The notes under the pieces were generated by a model. The model did no database searches, had not been told where the DNA came from, and worked only from the letters and a program-made list of their open reading frames with translations. Of a stretch of DNA of 10,281 nt, positions 1-9,995 are shown in pieces (positions within the stretch are counted from its first letter, which is position 1; each line of letters starts with the position of its first letter). The translations under genes and the position numbers were made by a program. This DNA comes from a virus (lineage: Duplodnaviria > Heunggongvirae > Uroviricota > Caudoviricetes), in IMG/VR virus record IMGVR_UViG_2547132275_000009. The stretch is one strand, 5' to 3'.

Positions 1-1150
1 AAGGTATATTTCTTTTTTTAAGCTCACTTTCCATAGCTTTAAAAACAAATCTATTTCTACCTATAACAACAATTTTAGAGCAATCAATATCGCCCTCAAT
101 TTCTGGATGTCTTTTTAAATTCAGTATATGTTGAATGCTATCACAAACCCATATAGCTTCAGATTCTTCATCTGGTAAAGCATTAAAAGATTTATAGCCA
201 TCAAGAGCAGCATTAACACCAACTTGGCTATTTGGTTTTAATTTATTAGCTAATTCAATCACTGCTTTCGAAGATCTATAGTTCTCGTTTAAACAATAAG
301 TTTTAGGAGTAAAATCTTTCACGAATGATTTAATAAAATAATCTGATGATGAACCATTAAAACCATAGATCATCTGGTCACTATCACCAACCATCATGAC
401 ATCTTTTATTTTATCACCGCAGAGAACCTTTATAAATTCGTACTGAGCTCTGTTTAAGTCTTGTGCTTCATCAACAAATAAAGCAACGTATTTTTTTTGA
501 TATATTCTTGCTACCGATTCTTGATTTAATAGGATTTTATGTGCATATAAAAGTATATCATCAAAATCCACACCACCACTTTCCAATAAAGCAGACTGAT
601 AATCTTGATAAATATTCCAAATACGCGGATTGGAGCTGAATTTTATCTTTACTTCATCTTCAGTTAAAAGCTCTCTTTTAATAATAGAGAATACATTAAG
701 ATATTGACTTATAACTTTTTCACGATTGCGCTTTTCTCTAACGTCCTCAACATCTAAGTACTCATCAATATTAACCCCCTGTTCTCTTAAGGAATGTAGG
801 AAAACCTCCATCCGATCTTGGTCACGTTCAAATATATGTAATTCTTTTGGTAACCCAATAGTATACCCATAACTTTCGAGTACCCTTTGTGCAACAGAAT
901 GAATTGTAGCAATCCAAATCCTATCACGATTTTCTGAGCCATCATCTAACCTTTCAAGCATTTCATCTGCTGCTTTATTTGTGAATGTTAAAGCAACCAC
1001 ACTTCCTCTAGCAGAGTTATTAAGAATGAACCTAACCCTCTCAGTAAGCACTCTTGTTTTACCAGACCCTGCAGATGCAAGAACTTGTATAGCCCCTCCC
1101 ATAGGAGCTCTAACAACTTCAATTTGAGATTGTGATAAATTATCAATCAT
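1..1150 (-). CDS. gajB: UvrD/PcrA/Rep-like SF1 helicase, GajB-like; partial, C-terminus beyond window start
   Basis: Hand translation of the minus strand from ATG at 1150-1148 gives MIDNLSQSQIEVVRAPMGGAIQVLASAGSGKTRVLTERV (helicase Q motif plus Walker A AGSGKT) and later FVDEAQD (SF1 motif II, DExQ). No stop before position 1, at least 383 codons. Start overlaps the upstream gene stop as ATGA (1147-1150). Confidence 0.8.
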   Translation of the reverse strand, partial: MIDNLSQSQIEVVRAPMGGAIQVLASAGSGKTRVLTERVRFILNNSARGSVVALTFTNKAADEMLERLDDGSENRDRIWIATIHSVAQRVLESYGYTIGLPKELHIFERDQDRMEVFLHSLREQGVNIDEYLDVEDVREKRNREKVISQYLNVFSIIKRELLTEDEVKIKFSSNPRIWNIYQDYQSALLESGGVDFDDILLYAHKILLNQESVARIYQKKYVALFVDEAQDLNRAQYEFIKVLCGDKIKDVMMVGDSDQMIYGFNGSSSDYFIKSFVKDFTPKTYCLNENYRSSKAVIELANKLKPNSQVGVNAALDGYKSFNALPDEESEAIWVCDSIQHILNLKRHPEIEGDIDCSKIVVIGRNRFVFKAMESELKKRNIP

Positions 1151-2922
1151 AGCTCAAGCCATCCCCTAACTTTATTAAATGCAATAATAACAGATTCCGG
1201 AAGTAACTCCTCAATTCTCTTTCCATTTGCATTCTGTGCTAGAATCACTCCTAAATACCCTGCATAACTAGCTTTTGAGTCACGCATTTTTTCAATTATA
1301 GCACTATCTTGTAAAGCCTCTATTTCTCTTTTCTTGGCTTCTCGATACCGTTCATTAGGACTAGCTTTGGTTTCACTTAACACTAATGATTCAATTATTT
1401 CTTCACGAATATTTAACTCGTTGTATAACTCAGCTTCAATATCATTTGTTTCTTTGAGGAACTCTAAAGAGAAACAATCAGGATTCAATACGAGGCCATC
1501 TTCACGAACTAAACGTGCTACCTGACGGTTTATCTCACCATGAGTATCACCATCATTATCACTAATAATACAGACAGGGATACCTAAATTACTTGCAAGT
1601 TTAATGAATGGTGGGTAATTTTTACCACTGACACTTACACAGTTAACTCCAACACTAAACATCGTCCTACCGAAATACAATTCAAACATGGATGGTATTA
1701 ATTGTTCTTCTGTAACACCCTCACATAAAATTAAGGCTCGAGAGAAAAGCAACTCACCACGGGTTAACATTATCTCCCTTTTTAATGCATTTTTTTCATC
1801 ATGTTCAATTCTTTTCTTCAAACAATTTACTGTTACTCCATCACCTTTCTTTATGAATGATCTTATATCTTCTATCTCAGCCATTGCGCTCAGGTATGGT
1901 GAATGAGTACTCAGTATAATTTGTCCCTGAGATGATGATAACTGTTTAAACAAGGTTCTTTGTGCATTGGGATGTAGATGCGCTTCTGGCTCTTCAGCTC
2001 CAACAATTGGATGTAGCGCCTTATTTTCGAGCTCATGCCGTTCATGCATAAAGCTTAAAAACGATTGAACTGTAAGCATTGAAGCCCAACTTCTCGTCCC
2101 AGTGCCATGATATTCCATTGAAAATGAATGGTTTTCTTCATCTCCGAAATGTACTGTAAATTGCTTTGATAGATCTCGGATTTTTTTAGGGAAAGGAGTT
2201 ATTTCTGTGTGGCTTGATCCTAGAAATGATTGGTTTAACCCTTGAAGTGAATTTTTTAAGCTTTGAAGCGGCTCACTTCTACTCACTGCGGTTTCATTTA
2301 TTGAACTTATCATTTCTTCAAGTGCAGTAACATCTTCATCTTCATATTTAATATATGATAAGACCTTCCCTATATATGAGCTTTTATCTTTAAGCTCATG
2401 ATGTATATCCCTCTGAGCCTCAATACAAATATAGGGGATTGCATCAACTTTTGTTCTTACCTTTCTTCTCTCGTTGACAACAATCTCTTTCCATCCCTCA
2501 AACTCCCCCCATTCATTCAAATAATAACGTTGTGTATTAAACCCACCTTTTATCTCATCTGGCTGAACTTTTGTACGAATAGCCACAAACTCATGTCCAT
2601 TTGCATCTACTGCAATATTATCACCGAAAACATCAATCCATTTTTCGTCAAACTCTTCTGTTTTATTATAATGTTCATCCGTAGGTATTATTTTTAAGTC
2701 AACGATAACTTCATTAACTTTTAACCCAGAACTATCTATATGAAGATCTTCATCACTAAAGTAACGTTGGTAATCACCTAAAGCTAGTTGCAACGATTTT
2801 AGGAAGGATGTTTTCCCCGCATTGTTTGTACCTAACAAAACGGCAATACGTCCTAGCTCAACCTCAATTTCCTTTATACCTCTAAAACCTGAAATCCTAA
2901 CAGAATTTATAAGAATTGACAT
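1147..2922 (-). CDS. gajA: OLD-family ABC-type ATPase fused to C-terminal Toprim nuclease domain, GajA-like
   Basis: 591-aa ORF. N-terminal Walker A GTNNAGKTS, Walker B-like EEPEAHLHP, LSTHSP (H-loop-like). C-terminal Toprim glutamate in LILCEGVTEE and DxD motif IISDNDGD. Strong SD (AAGGAGGG) 9 nt upstream of the ATG. Followed with 4-bp overlap by a UvrD-like helicase, the Gabija / class 2 OLD arrangement. Confidence 0.85.
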   Translation of the reverse strand: MSILINSVRISGFRGIKEIEVELGRIAVLLGTNNAGKTSFLKSLQLALGDYQRYFSDEDLHIDSSGLKVNEVIVDLKIIPTDEHYNKTEEFDEKWIDVFGDNIAVDANGHEFVAIRTKVQPDEIKGGFNTQRYYLNEWGEFEGWKEIVVNERRKVRTKVDAIPYICIEAQRDIHHELKDKSSYIGKVLSYIKYEDEDVTALEEMISSINETAVSRSEPLQSLKNSLQGLNQSFLGSSHTEITPFPKKIRDLSKQFTVHFGDEENHSFSMEYHGTGTRSWASMLTVQSFLSFMHERHELENKALHPIVGAEEPEAHLHPNAQRTLFKQLSSSQGQIILSTHSPYLSAMAEIEDIRSFIKKGDGVTVNCLKKRIEHDEKNALKREIMLTRGELLFSRALILCEGVTEEQLIPSMFELYFGRTMFSVGVNCVSVSGKNYPPFIKLASNLGIPVCIISDNDGDTHGEINRQVARLVREDGLVLNPDCFSLEFLKETNDIEAELYNELNIREEIIESLVLSETKASPNERYREAKKREIEALQDSAIIEKMRDSKASYAGYLGVILAQNANGKRIEELLPESVIIAFNKVRGWLEL

Positions 2923-4872: not shown

Positions 4873-4890
4873 TGTCAGAGTGCTGGCACA
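4873..4890 (-). promoter_or_regulatory. TGT-N12-ACA dyad (Ogr/Delta activator box) of a Psid-like late promoter
   Basis: TTGTCAGAGTGCTGGCACAA contains an exact TGT-N12-ACA. Its centre lies about 81 nt upstream of the proposed sid ATG, consistent with a box near -55 and a short leader. Confidence 0.55.
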
Positions 4891-4968: not shown

Positions 4969-5071
4969 ATTCACCACTGTTCACCTTAAATAAAAAGATA
5001 AGTAATACAGTGAGTTAAGAGGTGAACAGTTGAAGATCTGACTGTTCACCGTCTGTTCACCACTGTTCACC
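4969..5071. repeat. Cluster of TGTTCACC iterons (ori-like, alpha-protein binding sites)
   Basis: Exact TGTTCACC at 4978-4985, 5043-5050, 5054-5061, 5064-5071 (last three phased 10-11 bp apart), inverted copy GGTGAACA at 5021-5028, partial ATTCACC at 4969-4975. Same octamer as in the crr-like region after alpha. Confidence 0.6.
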
Positions 5072-5170
5072 CTCCTGTTTTTTCAGCCAGTCAGTTACTT
5101 AGATTTTTTAGCGATTAAAAAGCATATATATATAAATAAAAGTAATCATCGCTTTGCCAAAGAATTATCA

Positions 5171-5210
5171 AGGATTGCCAACGATTGTCAGAGATTGCCA
5201 CTGTTTGCCA
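5171..5210. repeat. Four phased 10-bp repeats (AGGATTGCCA, ACGATTGTCA, GAGATTGCCA, CTGTTTGCCA); candidate regulator binding array
   Basis: Head-to-tail 10-bp periodicity, consensus nnGATTGCCA, plus an additional TTGCCA at 5154-5159, in the divergent promoter region upstream of the alpA/vis-like gene. Confidence 0.4.
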
Positions 5211-5349
5211 TTCACCTGTTAACGGTTTGTTGTGTGAGATTTCACTGCAAAATGACTTGTTGCCCTGAGGGAAAATATTCACAAAATAGAGAGCTACCCG
5301 AAGCCGGACGGACACGACCGGCACTGTATGGACTTTGTGAGGTAGCCCG

Positions 5350-5616
5350 ATGCACACCGCTTTTTCTTCCCCGTCTTCTGCTCCTGCCGCGCCGCTGATG
5401 CCGGTTTCTGATACCGTTCACGAACGCTTTATCCGTCTGCCCGAAGTGATGCATCTGTGCGGCCTGTCCCGCTCGACCATTTACGACCTCATCAGCCGGG
5501 AAGCCTTCCCGAAACAAATCTCCCTCGGCGGCAAAAACGTGGCGTGGGCGCAGTCTGAAATCACTGCATGGATGGCGGATCGCATTGCCGAACGTAACCG
5601 GGGCTATGACGCATGA
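5350..5616 (+). CDS. alpA: AlpA/Vis-family helix-turn-helix regulator (phage excisionase-like fold)
   Basis: [49 protein letters not shown] matches the AlpA/Vis family pattern. SD GAGG 6 nt upstream of the ATG at 5350; an alternative internal start at 5398 would give 72 aa. Confidence 0.7.
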
Positions 5617-5651
5617 TGATGACCGTTCGGCAAACAGCCCCTTTTTCTGGC

Positions 5652-5681
5652 TTGCTTCTTTTCGCCGTTTCCAGGTATAGT
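5652..5681 (+). promoter_or_regulatory. Candidate sigma70 promoter (TTGCTT -N18- TATAGT), PLE-like, driving the immunity leader and replication operon
   Basis: -10 is 5/6 to TATAAT, -35 is 3/6 to TTGACA, 18-bp spacer. Lies just downstream of the alpA stop and about 25 nt upstream of the seqA-like box. Confidence 0.3.
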
Positions 5682-5710
5682 TTTCCCGCTGTCGCAAAAT
5701 CGGCAGCCGG

Positions 5711-5960
5711 GCGTAGGAACCCGAGTTACTCAATGGCGACACCGGACGCGCCATGCGTCTTTTTTTACGTCGTTGCTCAGGCACACCCATTTTTCGGGCT
5801 GTGGTGTTTACACCTTAGCCCCTGTCAGATAATGGTGATCCGGGCGGGGCAGCCTTCGGGCTGGCCGGTATTCATTGAGGCCGGTATTCCTACCCCCGTT
5901 CGGGTCACCACCCATGAGCGTAGGAACTCCGGTGGTGGCAATAACCGCTACTCAATGGAG
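5711..5960 (+). ncRNA. Candidate P4 CI-RNA-type immunity region: seqA-like (5711-5738), seqB/cI-like core (5862-5895), seqC-like (5918-5960)
   Basis: Direct repeats GCGTAGGAAC ... TACTCAATGG at 5711-5736 and 5918-5958. Between them, TTCATTGAGG ... ATTCCTAC (5871-5893) carries CATTGAG and TTCCTAC, complementary in antiparallel bipartite fashion to CTCAATG and GTAGGAA of both flanking boxes. Also an 11-nt tandem repeat GGCCGGTATTC at 5863-5873 and 5879-5889. Confidence 0.45.
5745..5767 (+). terminator. Short GC hairpin (GACGC-GCCAT-GCGTC) followed by T7; candidate immunity/attenuation terminator in the leader
   Basis: 5-bp GC-rich stem, 5-nt loop, then TTTTTTT at 5760-5766. Overlaps an alternative pairing ATGGCG/CGCCAT that involves the 3' part of the seqA-like box. 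Confidence 0.4.
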
Positions 5961-5969
5961 GTTGCCACT

Positions 5970-6164
5970 ATGGCTACGACCCTCACCCCGTCACACCCGC
6001 AGTTTGTCTTTGTATTTGCCGCTGTTCGTCGCGCAGACCGTAAACCCCGTATTTGTATGCTTCGCACCGTTGCCGGTGATGAGCACGCCGCACGCCTTTC
6101 TCTTGTTCGCGATTACGTCCTCTCGTTCGCTGGCCGCCTGCCGGTTGCGGAGGTGCGCGCATGA
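5970..6164 (+). CDS. Hypothetical small protein (64 aa), first gene of the replication operon
   Basis: ATG at 5970 preceded by GGAGG 9 nt upstream; stop overlaps the next ATG as ATGA. This is an internal start of the 183-aa track ORF, whose upstream part covers the structured leader. Confidence 0.4.
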
Positions 6165-6388
6165 GACACACCACCATTACTGCCCGTGACCTCGAATGTC
6201 TGGAGCATATGCGCAATGTCGGCCAGCTCGTCGGCGACCTGATGCAGGTGCAGGACTGCGCCACCGTTCGTCGTGACCCGGCGCAGCAGTTACAGCTCAC
6301 CTCCGTGATTTACCTCATGACCGCCCAGCTCGACGGCGTGGTCGAACGCTGCAATCAGCAGTGGCTGACCGGGGAGGGTAACGTATGA
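6161..6388 (+). CDS. Hypothetical small protein (75 aa)
   Basis: Translationally coupled on both sides (ATGA overlaps at 6161-6164 and 6385-6388). Codon usage consistent with the neighbouring alpha gene. Confidence 0.5.
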
Positions 6389-6705
6389 AAAAGCCATTAC
6401 CACCCGTATTACGCGCCGCGCTGTATCGTCGCGCCGTGGCCTGTGCATGGCTGACCCTGTGCGAACGCCAGCACCGCTACCCGCACCTCACCCTCGACGC
6501 GCTGGAAAGCGCCATTGCCGCCGAGCTGGAGGGCTTCTACCTGCGCCAGCACGGCGAGGAAAAAGGCCGCCAGATTGCCTGTGCCCTGCTGGAAGATTTA
6601 ATGGAAGCCGGACCACTCAAAGCCGCCCCGTCGCTGTCCTTTCTCGGGCTGGCCGTGATGGATGAGCTTTGCGCCCGTCATATCACGTCGCCGGTACTGC
6701 ACTGA
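6385..6705 (+). CDS. Hypothetical protein (106 aa) immediately upstream of alpha; possible positional equivalent of P4 cnr (unverified)
   Basis: ATGA-coupled start; stop 14 nt before the alpha start. Size and position recall the P4 orf upstream of alpha, but I cannot confirm sequence similarity. Confidence 0.5.
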
Positions 6706-6719
6706 GGGAGAAAATAACG

Positions 6720-9053
6720 ATGAAAATGAACGTAACAGAAACCGTAAAACAGGCGTGCGGCCACTGGCCGCGCATTCTCCCTGCGCTGGGTGTGAAGGTG
6801 ATTAAAAACCGCCATCAGTCCTGCCCGGTATGCGGCGGCTCCGACCGCTTTCGCTTTGATGATAAAGAGGGGCGCGGGACGTGGTTCTGCAATCAGTGCG
6901 GCGCGGGTGACGGGCTTAAGCTGGTAGAAAAAGTGTTTGGCGTGACCCCGTCAGAGGCCGCCGGGAAGGTGAATGCCGTGACCGGCAACCTGCCGCCGGT
7001 TGCCCCGGAAGTGATTGCGGTCGCAGAGGCTGAAACTGAGGCCGACCGCAAAGCGGCCGCCACGATGGCCGTAAAGCTCATGGAGAAAGCCCGCCCGGCC
7101 ACCGGCAACGCCTACCTCACCCGCAAGGGGTTCCCCGCTCTGGAATGTCTGACGCTCACCGTCATGCATAAAACCGGCGGCGTGACGTTCCGCGCCGGGG
7201 ATGTGGTTGTCCCGCTGTATGATGATACCGGTGCACTGGTTAACCTTCAGCTTATCAATGCTGACGGTCTCAAACGAACCCTGAAAGGGGGGCAGGTCAA
7301 AGGGACATGTCATGTCATCGAAGGGAAAAAACAGGCCGGAAAACGCCTGTGGATTGCAGAGGGGTATGCGACCGCACTCACCGTGCATCACCTGACCGGG
7401 GAAACCGTCATGGTGGCGCTGTCCTCCGTGAACCTCCTTTCTCTGGCGAGCCTTGCCCGTCAGAAATATCCGACCTGTCAGATTGTCCTCGCCGCCGACC
7501 GTGACCTTAACGGCGACGGCCAGAGTAAAGCCGCTGCGGCCGCAGATGCCTGTGAGGGCATTGTTGCCCTGCCGCCGGTGTTCGGTGACTGGAATGATGC
7601 GTTTATGCAGAAAGGTGAAGAAGCCACCCGGAAAGCCATTTATGACGCTATCCGGCCACCGGCGCAAAGTCCGTTCGACACCATGAGCGAGGCGGAATTC
7701 ACCGCCATGAGCGCCAGCGACAAGGCTTTGCGGGTGCATGAGCACTACAGCGAAGCGCTGGCGGTGGATGCTAACGGCCAGCTCCTGTCCCGCTATGAAA
7801 ACGGCATCTGGAAAAATATCCCTGCCGCCACTTTTTCACGGAATGTGGCTGATTTATTCCAGCGCTTACGCGCCCCGTTCTCGTCAGGGAAAATTGCCTC
7901 GGTGGTGGAGACCCTGAAACTGATTATTCCGCAGCAGGATACACCGGCGCGCCGTCTGATTGGCTTTCGCAATGGGGTACTCGATACCCAAAGTGGCCTG
8001 TTCAGCCCGCACAGTAAATCGCACTGGCTGCGTACGTTGTGCGACGTGGATTTCACCCCGCCGGTGGAAGGGGAAACGCTGGAGACGCACGCGCCGAACT
8101 TCTGGCGCTGGCTCGACCGTGCGGCCGGTAAAAGTCCACAAAAACGCGACGTGATTCTGGCTGCGCTGTTTATGGTGCTGGCGAACCGTTACGACTGGCA
8201 GCTCTTTCTCGAAGTCACCGGTCCCGGCGGGAGTGGCAAAAGTATTCTGGCTGAAATCGCGACCCTGCTTGCCGGGGAAGATAATGCCACGTCAGCCGAT
8301 ATCGACACACTGGAAGACCCGCGCAAACGTGCATCCCTGATTGGCTTCTCGCTAATCCGTCTGCCAGACCAGGAAAAATGGAGCGGCGACGGCGCAGGGC
8401 TTAAGGCCATCACCGGCGGCGATGCGGTCTCAGTTGACCCGAAATACCAGAACCCGTACTCAACACATATTCCGGCAGTGATTCTGGCCGTGAACAACAA
8501 CCCGATGCGCTTCACCGACCGCAGCGGCGGTGTGTCACGTCGCCGGGTGATTATTCACTTCCCGGAACAGATTGCCCCGGAGGAACGCGACCCGCAGCTC
8601 AGGGATAAAATTGCGCGCGAGCTGGCCGTCATTGTGCGCCAGCTTATGCAGAAATTCAGCGACCCGATGACCGCCCGCGCACTGCTCCAGTCGCAGCAGA
8701 ATTCCGATGAGGCGCTCAACATCAAGCGCGATGCAGACCCGACATTTGATTTTTGCGGCTATCTGGAAATGCTTCCGCAGACCAACGGGATGTTTATGGG
8801 GAATGCCAGCATCATCCCGCGTAATTATCGTAAATATCTCTATCACGCGTATCTGGCCTATATGGAGGCTAACGGCTACAGGAACGTGCTCAGCCTGAAA
8901 ATGTTCGGGCTGGGGCTGCCCATGATGCTGAAAGAGTACGGCCTGAATTATGAGAAGCGGCACACCAAGCAGGGGATACAAACCAATCTGTCGCTGAAAG
9001 AGGAAAGTTACGGCGACTGGCTGCCAAAATGCGACGACCCCACTGCGACATAA
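6720..9053 (+). CDS. alpha: Alpha protein: bifunctional primase-helicase with origin-binding C-terminus (P4 alpha-like)
   Basis: 777 aa from ATG 6720 (SD GGGAG 9 nt upstream; track ORF begins at an upstream in-frame ATG at 6669). N-terminal Zn-binding CPVCGG...CNQCG, Toprim motifs LWIAEGYATAL and LAADRDLNGDG, helicase Walker A VTGPGGSGKSILAE. Followed by its cognate iterons. Confidence 0.9.
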   Translation: MKMNVTETVKQACGHWPRILPALGVKVIKNRHQSCPVCGGSDRFRFDDKEGRGTWFCNQCGAGDGLKLVEKVFGVTPSEAAGKVNAVTGNLPPVAPEVIAVAEAETEADRKAAATMAVKLMEKARPATGNAYLTRKGFPALECLTLTVMHKTGGVTFRAGDVVVPLYDDTGALVNLQLINADGLKRTLKGGQVKGTCHVIEGKKQAGKRLWIAEGYATALTVHHLTGETVMVALSSVNLLSLASLARQKYPTCQIVLAADRDLNGDGQSKAAAAADACEGIVALPPVFGDWNDAFMQKGEEATRKAIYDAIRPPAQSPFDTMSEAEFTAMSASDKALRVHEHYSEALAVDANGQLLSRYENGIWKNIPAATFSRNVADLFQRLRAPFSSGKIASVVETLKLIIPQQDTPARRLIGFRNGVLDTQSGLFSPHSKSHWLRTLCDVDFTPPVEGETLETHAPNFWRWLDRAAGKSPQKRDVILAALFMVLANRYDWQLFLEVTGPGGSGKSILAEIATLLAGEDNATSADIDTLEDPRKRASLIGFSLIRLPDQEKWSGDGAGLKAITGGDAVSVDPKYQNPYSTHIPAVILAVNNNPMRFTDRSGGVSRRRVIIHFPEQIAPEERDPQLRDKIARELAVIVRQLMQKFSDPMTARALLQSQQNSDEALNIKRDADPTFDFCGYLEMLPQTNGMFMGNASIIPRNYRKYLYHAYLAYMEANGYRNVLSLKMFGLGLPMMLKEYGLNYEKRHTKQGIQTNLSLKEESYGDWLPKCDDPTAT

Positions 9054-9104: not shown

Positions 9105-9400
9105 GGGTGAACAATCCACTGTTCACCCTTCACCGTATATTCACCCTGTATCACCATGAAATTATTGATAAAAAACCAGAGGTGAACAGTGTGAACAGTA
9201 AAACCTGAAAAAACTTTTTATCCCTCCACCACATCGCCTGACCGGGCGCATCCAGAGCGAGAAAAAATCACAAAGGTGAAGAGTCGACTGTTCACTCTTC
9301 ACCAACTCATCACCATTTATCTTTATGATTTAAAATAGAAAATAAGCATGGTGAACAGTGTGAACAGTTAAATGCAAAAAAACTTTTTTTGAGTATGATG
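9105..9400. repeat. crr-like cis replication region: two ~120-bp direct repeats each containing TGTTCACC/GGTGAACA iterons
   Basis: Repeat 1 about 9105-9230, repeat 2 about 9273-9400. GGTGAACA at 9106, 9181, 9350; TGTTCACC at 9120; degenerate copies at 9190, 9289, 9359. Near-identical tail GGTGAACAGTGTGAACAGT(A/T)AA..AAAAAACTTTTT at 9181-9228 and 9350-9399. Confidence 0.65.
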
Positions 9401-9494: not shown

Positions 9495-9995
9495 ATGGGG
9501 ACTACTTTGCTTCAAGAAAACCATGAAAAAATTTTAAACATACTAAATGAAGCTAAAGATGTGGCGCTAAGGTATTACAAATTAACCAATAAGCCTCTCG
9601 GAATCACTGGAGAAATAGCTGAACATGAAGCTGCAACTCTTCTCGGGTTGTCACTATGTTCAGCACGTCAGTCCGGATACGATGCGACTGAGATTTTGGA
9701 CGGGAAAGAATATAGAGTTCAAATCAAAGGTCGATATATGCCTGATCCTAAAAAAGTCTCTGCGAGAATTGGTGCTATTGATATATCTAAGCCATTTGAT
9801 TCTGTTCTTTTAGTTTTGCTTGATGAAAATTATGATGCTTTTGCCATGTATGAAGCATCACGAGATGTAGTAGTCGCAGCTCTTCAAGCTCCGGGGTCAA
9901 AGTCTAGAAATGAGCGAAATCAGCTAGGCATAGCAAAATTCAAGTCCATTAGCCGTCTCCGCTGGAGCAAGGTTGTTGAACCTGAGATCCTTTAA
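9495..9995 (+). CDS. Hypothetical protein (166 aa) in an AT-rich islet; function unassigned, possibly a PD-(D/E)xK-like fold
   Basis: Clean ORF with a GGGA-type SD 6 nt upstream, no competing ORF, composition clearly more AT-rich than the satellite core. Motif string EIAEHEAATLLG ... GYDATEILDGKEYRVQIKGR is compatible with a nuclease core (E ... D ... Q/E-x-K) but this is only pattern-level inference. Confidence 0.6.
   Translation: MGTTLLQENHEKILNILNEAKDVALRYYKLTNKPLGITGEIAEHEAATLLGLSLCSARQSGYDATEILDGKEYRVQIKGRYMPDPKKVSARIGAIDISKPFDSVLLVLLDENYDAFAMYEASRDVVVAALQAPGSKSRNERNQLGIAKFKSISRLRWSKVVEPEIL

Follow-up and report, generated by a model that had tools for sequence, protein, structure and literature searches.

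In the immI region of phages P1 and P7, c4 is found with icd-ant; in P1, a processed RNA uses two loop elements to pair with upstream and downstream targets, the downstream pairing covers the icd ribosome binding site, and the gene controlled is the antirepressor Ant. The anti-immunity RNA of N15 and phiKO2 also controls an antirepressor operon, in a linear plasmid-prophage context. In P4-like prophages, the IsrK-like RNA corresponds to seqA and the C4 RNA to the CI RNA (PMC3632133, PMC4825925), and pairing of CI RNA with seqA and seqC leads to premature termination (PMC4825925). The P4 eta and kil genes are nested, with eta holding an internal constitutive promoter together with the seqA and CI sites, and in the eta/kil/alpA coupling model it is translation, and not the product, that prevents termination (PMC10111431). 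In the Gifsy-1 IsrK-orf45-anrP locus of Salmonella, a leader of the same type is followed by a stable, processed RNA and a small ORF, and IsrK is reported as a trans activator of translation that feeds an antiterminator/antirepressor cascade (PMC4825925). The system is well known already, and the copy described here differs by its own recognition sequence.

We analysed a 10,281-nt stretch of viral DNA (the window) in which a first-pass annotation, made from the sequence alone, had proposed a P4 CI-RNA-type locus with seqA/seqB/seqC logic between alpA and the replication genes. Pfam gene calls and a gene order matching that of P4 bear out this placement. The locus is very probably the immunity region of a P4-like satellite prophage, most likely working as in P4, because two Rfam RNA families are matched here, the same two are matched in P4, and the RNA loops covary with their target boxes. 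The genes of the region are as follows.

5350-5616, + strand: alpA/vis homologue, 88 aa (Pfam Phage_AlpA, 72 bits)
5613-6164, + strand: eta homologue, a 183-aa ORF spanning the candidate promoter, leader, C4 RNA, seqC and kil
5970-6164, + strand: kil homologue, 64 aa, Icd-like, nested in eta, with its ATG at 5970 in the eta frame and GGAGG at 5957-5961
6161-9053, + strand: downstream genes predicted to be under this control (75-aa ORF, DUF5375, alpha-type primase-helicase)

The surrounding genes are P4-like (psu, a delta-like regulator, an ORF in the sid position, alpA, DUF5375 and primase-helicase). The DUF5375 protein is a homologue of P4 orf106 (Pfam, 217 bits), the primase-helicase contains Zn_Ribbon_Prim, Toprim_3, D5_N and Pox_D5 domains (Pfam), and TGTTCACC iterons match the annotated ori repeats of P4. 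From alpA/orf88 through orf106 the window is ~80% identical to P4 at the DNA level, with the same order of parts and the same flanking genes, although P4 epsilon and orf151 are replaced in the window by the single 75-aa ORF. P4-like satellites were found in about one-third of the E. coli genomes examined (1842/5426). A tRNA scan for an attachment site found none in the window.

The gene context also bears on the alternative that the C4 RNA controls an antirepressor gene (ant) whose product inactivates a protein repressor, as in an anti-immunity module of P1/N15 type. The Rfam C4 family (RF01695) also serves P1 and P7, and the next gene here, kil, is likewise Icd-like; the C4-seqC part has 70-75% DNA matches beside ant genes in Stx phages, and the leader and C4 part matches phiKO2 (81% over parts of ~5674-5940, beside an annotated terminator). 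However, no ant gene follows the RNA in the window, the operon running instead into DUF5375 and the primase as in P4, and with no protein repressor gene in the window and a P4 architecture throughout the element (psu, delta, sid), this explanation is highly improbable.

To identify structured RNAs, the whole window was scanned against Rfam at gathering thresholds. This gave two matches, C4 and isrK, both within this region, both full length and both above their gathering scores. When the phage P4 immunity region was used as a positive control, it produced the same two matches at equivalent positions, the C4 score of the P4 cI region being 74.9. The RNA elements and their parts are listed below.

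5688-5767, + strand: IsrK-type leader (seqA) RNA; Rfam isrK RF01394, 70.9 bits against a threshold of 50, model positions 1-77 of 77 at 5688-5765
5688-5707, + strand: leader hairpin
5708-5723, + strand: leader hairpin with the a1 box (5713-5719) in its loop
5729-5736, + strand: b1 box of the leader, single-stranded
5744-5760 followed by T7, + strand: intrinsic terminator of the leader, a 7-bp GC-rich hairpin found by terminator scan
5798-5806 paired with 5811-5819, + strand: spacer hairpin predicted by RNAalifold on the alignment of homologous loci described below, with many compensatory pairs
5828-5915, + strand: C4/CI-type antisense RNA (seqB); Rfam C4 RF01695, 81.3 bits against a threshold of 45, model positions 1-87 of 87
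5833-5849 paired with 5894-5910, + strand: basal stem of the C4 RNA
5850-5863, + strand: C4 hairpin
5864-5885, + strand: second C4 hairpin, with the b' loop at 5872-5879
5887-5893, + strand: a' contact, in the internal loop of the C4 RNA
5904-5912 paired with 5931-5939, + strand: alternative hairpin presenting the a2 box (5920-5926) in its loop
5918-5961, + strand: seqC, with the a2 box (5918-5927) and the b2 box (5949-5958) as exact repeats of the seqA boxes

The direct repeats reported by the first-pass annotation were recovered at exactly the coordinates it had given, with GCGTAGGAAC confined to 5711 and 5918 and TACTCAATGG to 5727 and 5949. The segments that it had described as complementary to them, CATTGAG (5873) and TTCCTAC (5887), occur once each on the + strand and match the reverse complements of the half-box cores, in antiparallel order, and the GC hairpin with a T7 tail (5744-5767) that it had placed after the first box is the sole terminator-like site in a scan of 5300-6700. 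A duplex comparison against shuffled controls, which it had proposed, likewise came out in favor of pairing: among 500 dinucleotide shuffles, none equalled the predicted energy of seqB with seqA (-35.1 kcal/mol) and two equalled that of seqB with seqC (-32.3 kcal/mol). A lone 10-mer repeat in 10 kb is not significant; the ensemble of features is beyond chance, because the duplex energies beat the shuffles and the pairings covary across 76 homologous loci.

These loci were collected by a scan for primase relatives, which gave 80 loci from Enterobacter, Citrobacter, Klebsiella, Pantoea, Pectobacterium, Serratia, Yersinia and other genera; the whole 288-nt unit was contained in 77 of 83 loci, and 76 sequences were aligned (alignment A1). 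Seven a-box types and 16 b-box types occur among the 76 loci, in 35 combinations, and with few exceptions the two C4 loops of a locus match its upstream and its downstream box pair alike. The four contacts between loops and boxes are kept by changes on both sides of most pairs.

a1 with a': 99.8% of cells paired, 6 of 7 pairs changed on both sides
b1 with b': 99.2% of cells paired, 6 of 8 pairs changed on both sides
b' with b2: 99.3% of cells paired, 6 of 8 pairs changed on both sides
a' with a2: 100% of cells paired, 6 of 7 pairs changed on both sides

When the partners were slid by 1-3 columns, whole-structure pairing fell to 31-46%, and no shuffle reached the observed covariation. Phylogeny is left out of account in the shuffle controls for covariation; an artefact of phylogeny is, however, disfavored by the slid controls and by the number of independent box types. 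RNAalifold, given the alignment as its sole input, recovered the seqA-seqB helices, which it models in cis, and the covariation itself reads alike for pairing in cis and for pairing in trans of a processed CI RNA with another transcript. Wobble pairs in the 76 loci are G·U and almost never A·C, as expected for an RNA of the + strand. Apparent failures of b2 pairing in four loci were 1-nt alignment slips that disappeared in alignment A1.

The internal structures of the two RNAs are conserved in the same way. The isolated C4 RNA folds with an MFE of -49.3 kcal/mol (z = -4.6), and its stems covary. The leader helices covary as well, with a terminator pair occurring as GC:52/CG:22, and the T-run is invariant. 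The spacer hairpin is variable in sequence and kept in structure, and may be a processing signal. The alternative hairpin uses the 3' strand of the C4 basal stem and so competes with that stem; it is 98.8% paired over 75 distinct sequences, with 28 double-change cells compared with 6.5 in shuffles, and it is also predicted by RNAalifold. In all loci, the kil Shine-Dalgarno sequence GGAGG (5957-5961) begins with the last two G residues of the b2 box.

The full-length match of the leader to the isrK model (70.9 bits, with the same hairpins and terminator) raises the alternative that it acts like the Gifsy-1 IsrK, as a short RNA that opens the read-through mRNA in trans and activates translation of a downstream small ORF. 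The short IsrK RNA of Salmonella does activate orf45-anrP translation on a long transcript (PMC4825925), and the alternative helices that the alignment supports around the C4 stem would be able to switch conformation. Against this, the leader boxes are complementary to and covary with the C4 loops, which is the relation of seqA to CI and not that of one leader to another, so that the leader here is a C4 target; and what lies downstream is a set of genes for replication, as in P4, rather than an antirepressor. We regard an activator role as unlikely. It could coexist with P4-type immunity, the leader then serving, for instance, to titrate CI as a decoy.

The whole RNA region lies within the eta frame, and the first-pass annotation had considered the 183-aa ORF probably not coding. 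In the PGAP annotation the entire ORF is called a protein ("host cell division inhibitor Icd-like protein", 183 aa); the ORF matches Pfam Phage_ASH (PF10554) over residues 22-131 (103 bits) and NCBIfam phage_ICD_like over residues 131-178 only (75.7 bits). In 68 of 76 loci the frame runs through the whole leader and C4 region without a stop, the other two frames averaging 4.3 and 2.4 stops; reading on past the 1-nt indel of one clade brings the loci with an open frame to 75 of 76. The distance from the leader start to the kil ATG is 279, 282, 285, 288, 318 or 327 nt, all multiples of three; the exception is the Pectobacterium/Dickeya group, in which there is a 1-nt deletion beside the ATG and the upstream frame stays open for ~250 codons more. 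The alpA stop overlaps the eta start (ATGATGATGA, ATGA), and the overlap is conserved, as in P4 with orf88.

The open frame, the indels in multiples of three, the Phage_ASH score and the PGAP call are what would be expected if the conserved entity were a protein, an 'Ash'/Eta domain fused to Kil, with the RNA-like features incidental. Codon analysis of the homologous loci speaks against this. In kil, the variability of third codon positions is 2.25 times that of the other two, and pN/pS is 0.37, compared with ~1.3 out of frame; in alpA, the third-position excess is 1.55 and pN/pS is 0.60 in frame and 1.1 out of frame. Upstream of kil, however, the third-position excess is 0.74-1.03 and the in-frame pN/pS is 0.72-1.21, the same as in the other frames, so that despite the 103-bit HMM match the Phage_ASH codons are under no purifying selection on amino acids. 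Variation in this part is concentrated in the boxes, where it is compensatory as RNA and radical in amino acids, and it tolerates G·U but not A·C pairs. The open frame itself is accounted for by the P4 model, because in that model translation, rather than its product, blocks termination (PMC10111431). A fused Ash/Kil protein as the conserved entity is accordingly a very remote prospect: over 5688-5969, the conserved entity is the RNA.

Synonymous-site bias, which the first-pass annotation had named as a finding that would refute its RNA reading, is absent over the RNA part, and its doubt about the ORF holds as far as the upstream amino acids are concerned. The doubt does not hold for the 3' third, which is a real 64-aa Kil/Icd-like gene with its ATG and Shine-Dalgarno sequence conserved in 75 of 76 loci and a product 87% identical to P4 Kil, nor does it do justice to the frame as a whole, which is the counterpart of P4 eta and has stayed open in the homologues. 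Upstream of kil, the eta frame is probably translated, with its sequence set by the RNA. The annotated "Icd-like protein", or Pfam "Ash", is for the most part an RNA locus read in frame, and only the last 64 codons of the 183-aa ORF behave as a protein-coding gene.

Two further signals were considered in the same region.

5652-5681, + strand: candidate PLE-like constitutive promoter inside eta (TTGCTT, 18-nt spacer, TATAGT)
5950-6039, + strand: C-rich, G-poor stretch, a candidate Rho-loading region and putative counterpart of P4 timm

The promoter letters proposed by the first-pass annotation, TTGCTT at 5652 and TATAGT at 5676, are present and conserved in relatives, with the -10 TAYAGT invariant at 5/6 positions, the -35 TTGC 91-99% conserved and the spacer 18 nt long in 62 of 68 loci, and P4 record X02534 has an annotated "-10 consensus" at the aligned position. 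A strict sigma-70 consensus scan found no promoter at 5652-5681, because the -35 matches just 3/6 positions; we retain the candidate on two grounds, its conservation and its alignment to P4. An upstream late promoter was sought in the window and not located. A TGT-N12-ACA site at 4873-4890, the motif of the late-promoter activator, was rejected as a single, poorly placed match at a frequency no higher than chance. The C/G ratio at 5950-6039 is 1.8-2.1, a local maximum within 5680-6440 that lies below the window-wide 95th percentile of 2.8; the peak is consistent with a Rho-loading site and is not significant window-wide.

The P4-type scheme for this locus builds on the two RNA family memberships, the complementarity and covariation, the Shine-Dalgarno overlap, the coding signature of kil and the retention of an open eta frame across loci, all observed here. 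The candidate constitutive promoter (~5652-5681) would start a transcript at ~5688, and many transcripts would end at the leader terminator (5744-5767), giving a short IsrK/seqA-type RNA. Read-through transcripts would carry the C4/CI RNA (5828-5915), which by analogy with P4 would be processed to a stable small RNA, and its b' loop and a' internal loop would pair with the leader a1/b1 boxes and the downstream a2/b2 boxes, in trans and in cis. Pairing at b2 would cover the start of the kil Shine-Dalgarno sequence, leaving kil, the first gene translated from PLE transcripts, untranslated. Transcription would then end early, presumably via Rho at the C-rich start of kil, so that the primase and other replication genes would remain silent in the resident element and likewise in any same-type element that enters the cell. 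The steps modelled here on P4 are the processing of the RNA, the dependence on Rho and in vivo immunity. When the upstream late promoter fires, ribosomes would translate alpA and then, by stop/start coupling, eta through the RNA region; translation of eta would block pairing and termination and let late transcription escape control.

Judged by sequence, the locus appears to have every feature by which a P4 immunity system can be recognized, with the promoter a candidate that is conserved and has a -35 matching at 3/6 positions. As in P4, the CI loops are complementary to two boxes upstream and two downstream, and b2 lies on the kil Shine-Dalgarno sequence. The differences are that the window boxes are GTAGGAA/CTCAATGG, compared with GTGAGAA/TTCACAGG in P4, with the loops changed to match, and that the window spacer is 45 nt shorter. 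The window loop segment is predicted to pair with the P4 targets at -20.5 and -19.0 kcal/mol, within the shuffle range, and the P4 RNA shows the converse preference. Since predicted cross-pairing is at background level, the window element and P4 should be heteroimmune.

The window excludes the integrase and the element ends, and could come from a decaying prophage in which the immunity features are inherited and functionless. Yet the three sets of boxes remain a perfect match; none of kil, alpA, primase, psu, delta and sid is disrupted, and the candidate promoter, terminator and Shine-Dalgarno sequence match the family consensus. Relatives, moreover, switch specificity in an ongoing and coordinated manner, and continuing selection is therefore indicated. 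An inactive relic is thus very unlikely, and the window is better read as a P4-like satellite whose RNA immunity switch is intact, ordinary as an instance.

The diversity of types among the 76 loci suggests diversifying selection. It is possible, though we advance this tentatively, that P4-like immunity RNAs carry a combinatorial two-box address, with at least seven a types, 16 b types and 35 combinations in the 76 loci. The scale and modularity of such a two-box code, the speed of switching and the Ash family as an RNA-shaped frame may be the less well known aspects of the system. A large survey of P4-like satellites (PMC8628076) does not discuss the immunity RNA, and a 1996 paper on phiR73 immunity specificity is cited in PMC7567579. 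If the address is real and undescribed at this scale, it would show, in a compact natural case, how programmable RNA-RNA specificity evolves while a reading frame has to be maintained, and Pfam "Ash" would be a protein family shaped by RNA, since the same sequence must stay an open frame with its product unconstrained. The two boxes would also offer a simple sequence-based immunity typing of P4-like satellites, in which types predict mutual exclusion.

Switches of one box type are seen between close relatives. P4 and one aligned locus (L031) are 99.0% identical outside the boxes and have two nucleotide differences in each of a1, a' and a2, and the window and another locus (L006) are 94.7% identical outside the boxes and have a different b type at all three b sites. 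Because the six sites are interleaved along the DNA, this reassortment is not explicable by a single crossover.

RNAalifold was applied to A1, an alignment of 76 homologous P4-like loci from Enterobacterales. It proposed a helix between 5775-5787 and 5834-5845 (A1 columns 95-107 with 193-204), in which the spacer pairs with the 5' strand of the basal stem of the C4 RNA, the CI-type antisense RNA of the locus. Some double changes are found in this helix across A1, for example, CG in 34 sequences and UA in 28, and its pairs are broken in several sequences. Since the 3' strand of the same basal stem is shared with the a2 hairpin (5904-5912 paired with 5931-5939), the alignment-based model suggests a candidate fold in which the primary transcript of the immunity locus may swap the C4 basal stem for two flanking helices.

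Nine loci (L017, L018, L027, L034, L061, L066, L068, L073, and L079) have lost 1 nt from the internal loop of the C4 RNA (A1 column 245), and every one of them has also lost 2 nt approximately 25 nt downstream (A1 columns 273-276). Together, the two deletions restore the reading frame of eta, the 183-aa ORF that spans the leader, the C4 RNA, and the downstream boxes. All nine loci possess the a-type GTGAGAA, so the paired deletions may represent one single event.

The RNA locus is handled as a protein in public annotation. The full 183-aa ORF (5613-6164) is named "host cell division inhibitor Icd-like protein" by PGAP, the labels "cI gene product" and "put. ash gene" appear in older P4 records, and the Pfam entry is an "Ash protein family". 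A coding signature is found only in the last 64 codons of the ORF.

In genomes with several P4-like elements, including the three elements L005, L011, and L022 of Enterobacter chuandaensis 090028, co-resident elements never share both box types, in what is a small sample of few pairs. Some co-resident pairs have one box in common and differ in the other, e.g., TTTGCAG/CTTCAAGG in L005 versus TTGGCGT/CTTCAAGG in L011. The locus L058 of Mangrovibacter yixingensis (contig ctg003, 41-328) has leader boxes GTAGGAA/CTCAATGG that match neither its own C4 loops nor its own seqC boxes, GTGGAAA/TCTAACGG; they match L055, a co-resident locus in the same genome. Both loci start approximately 40 nt from a contig end, and the L058 leader could therefore stem either from genuine recombination or from misassembly at a repeat.

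The octamer TGTTCACC or its complement, marked (-), forms two clusters in the window, which also contains a further repeat set:
4978-5071, first octamer cluster: 4978, 5021(-), 5043, 5054, 5064
5154-5210, further set of ATTGCCA-like repeats
9106-9357, second octamer cluster: 9106(-), 9120, 9181(-), 9350(-)

The annotated "ori type 1 repeats" of phage P4 are made of the same octamer. The two clusters are probably the counterparts of ori and of the second cis replication region in P4.

Putative defence genes are found beside psu and 3' of the primase:
1-2922, minus strand, Gabija-like defence pair, GajA plus UvrD-type helicase ORF
1147-2922, minus strand, GajA (PADLOC GajA, 815 bits), OLD-type ATPase-TOPRIM
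start near 1149, running off the left end of the window, minus strand, UvrD-type helicase ORF with GSGKT motif, 383 aa visible
9495-9995, plus strand, 166-aa ORF, full-length match to the PADLOC Type II methyl-directed restriction enzyme model (332 bits), Pfam DUF6998

The partial helicase ORF after GajA is as would be expected of GajB. The pair adjoins psu, whereas the near-identical E. coli GF3-3 element encodes Drt3a/Drt3b at the same psu-side position, which looks like a swappable defence hotspot. The 166-aa ORF, located 3' of the primase, seems to be a second cargo gene for defence.
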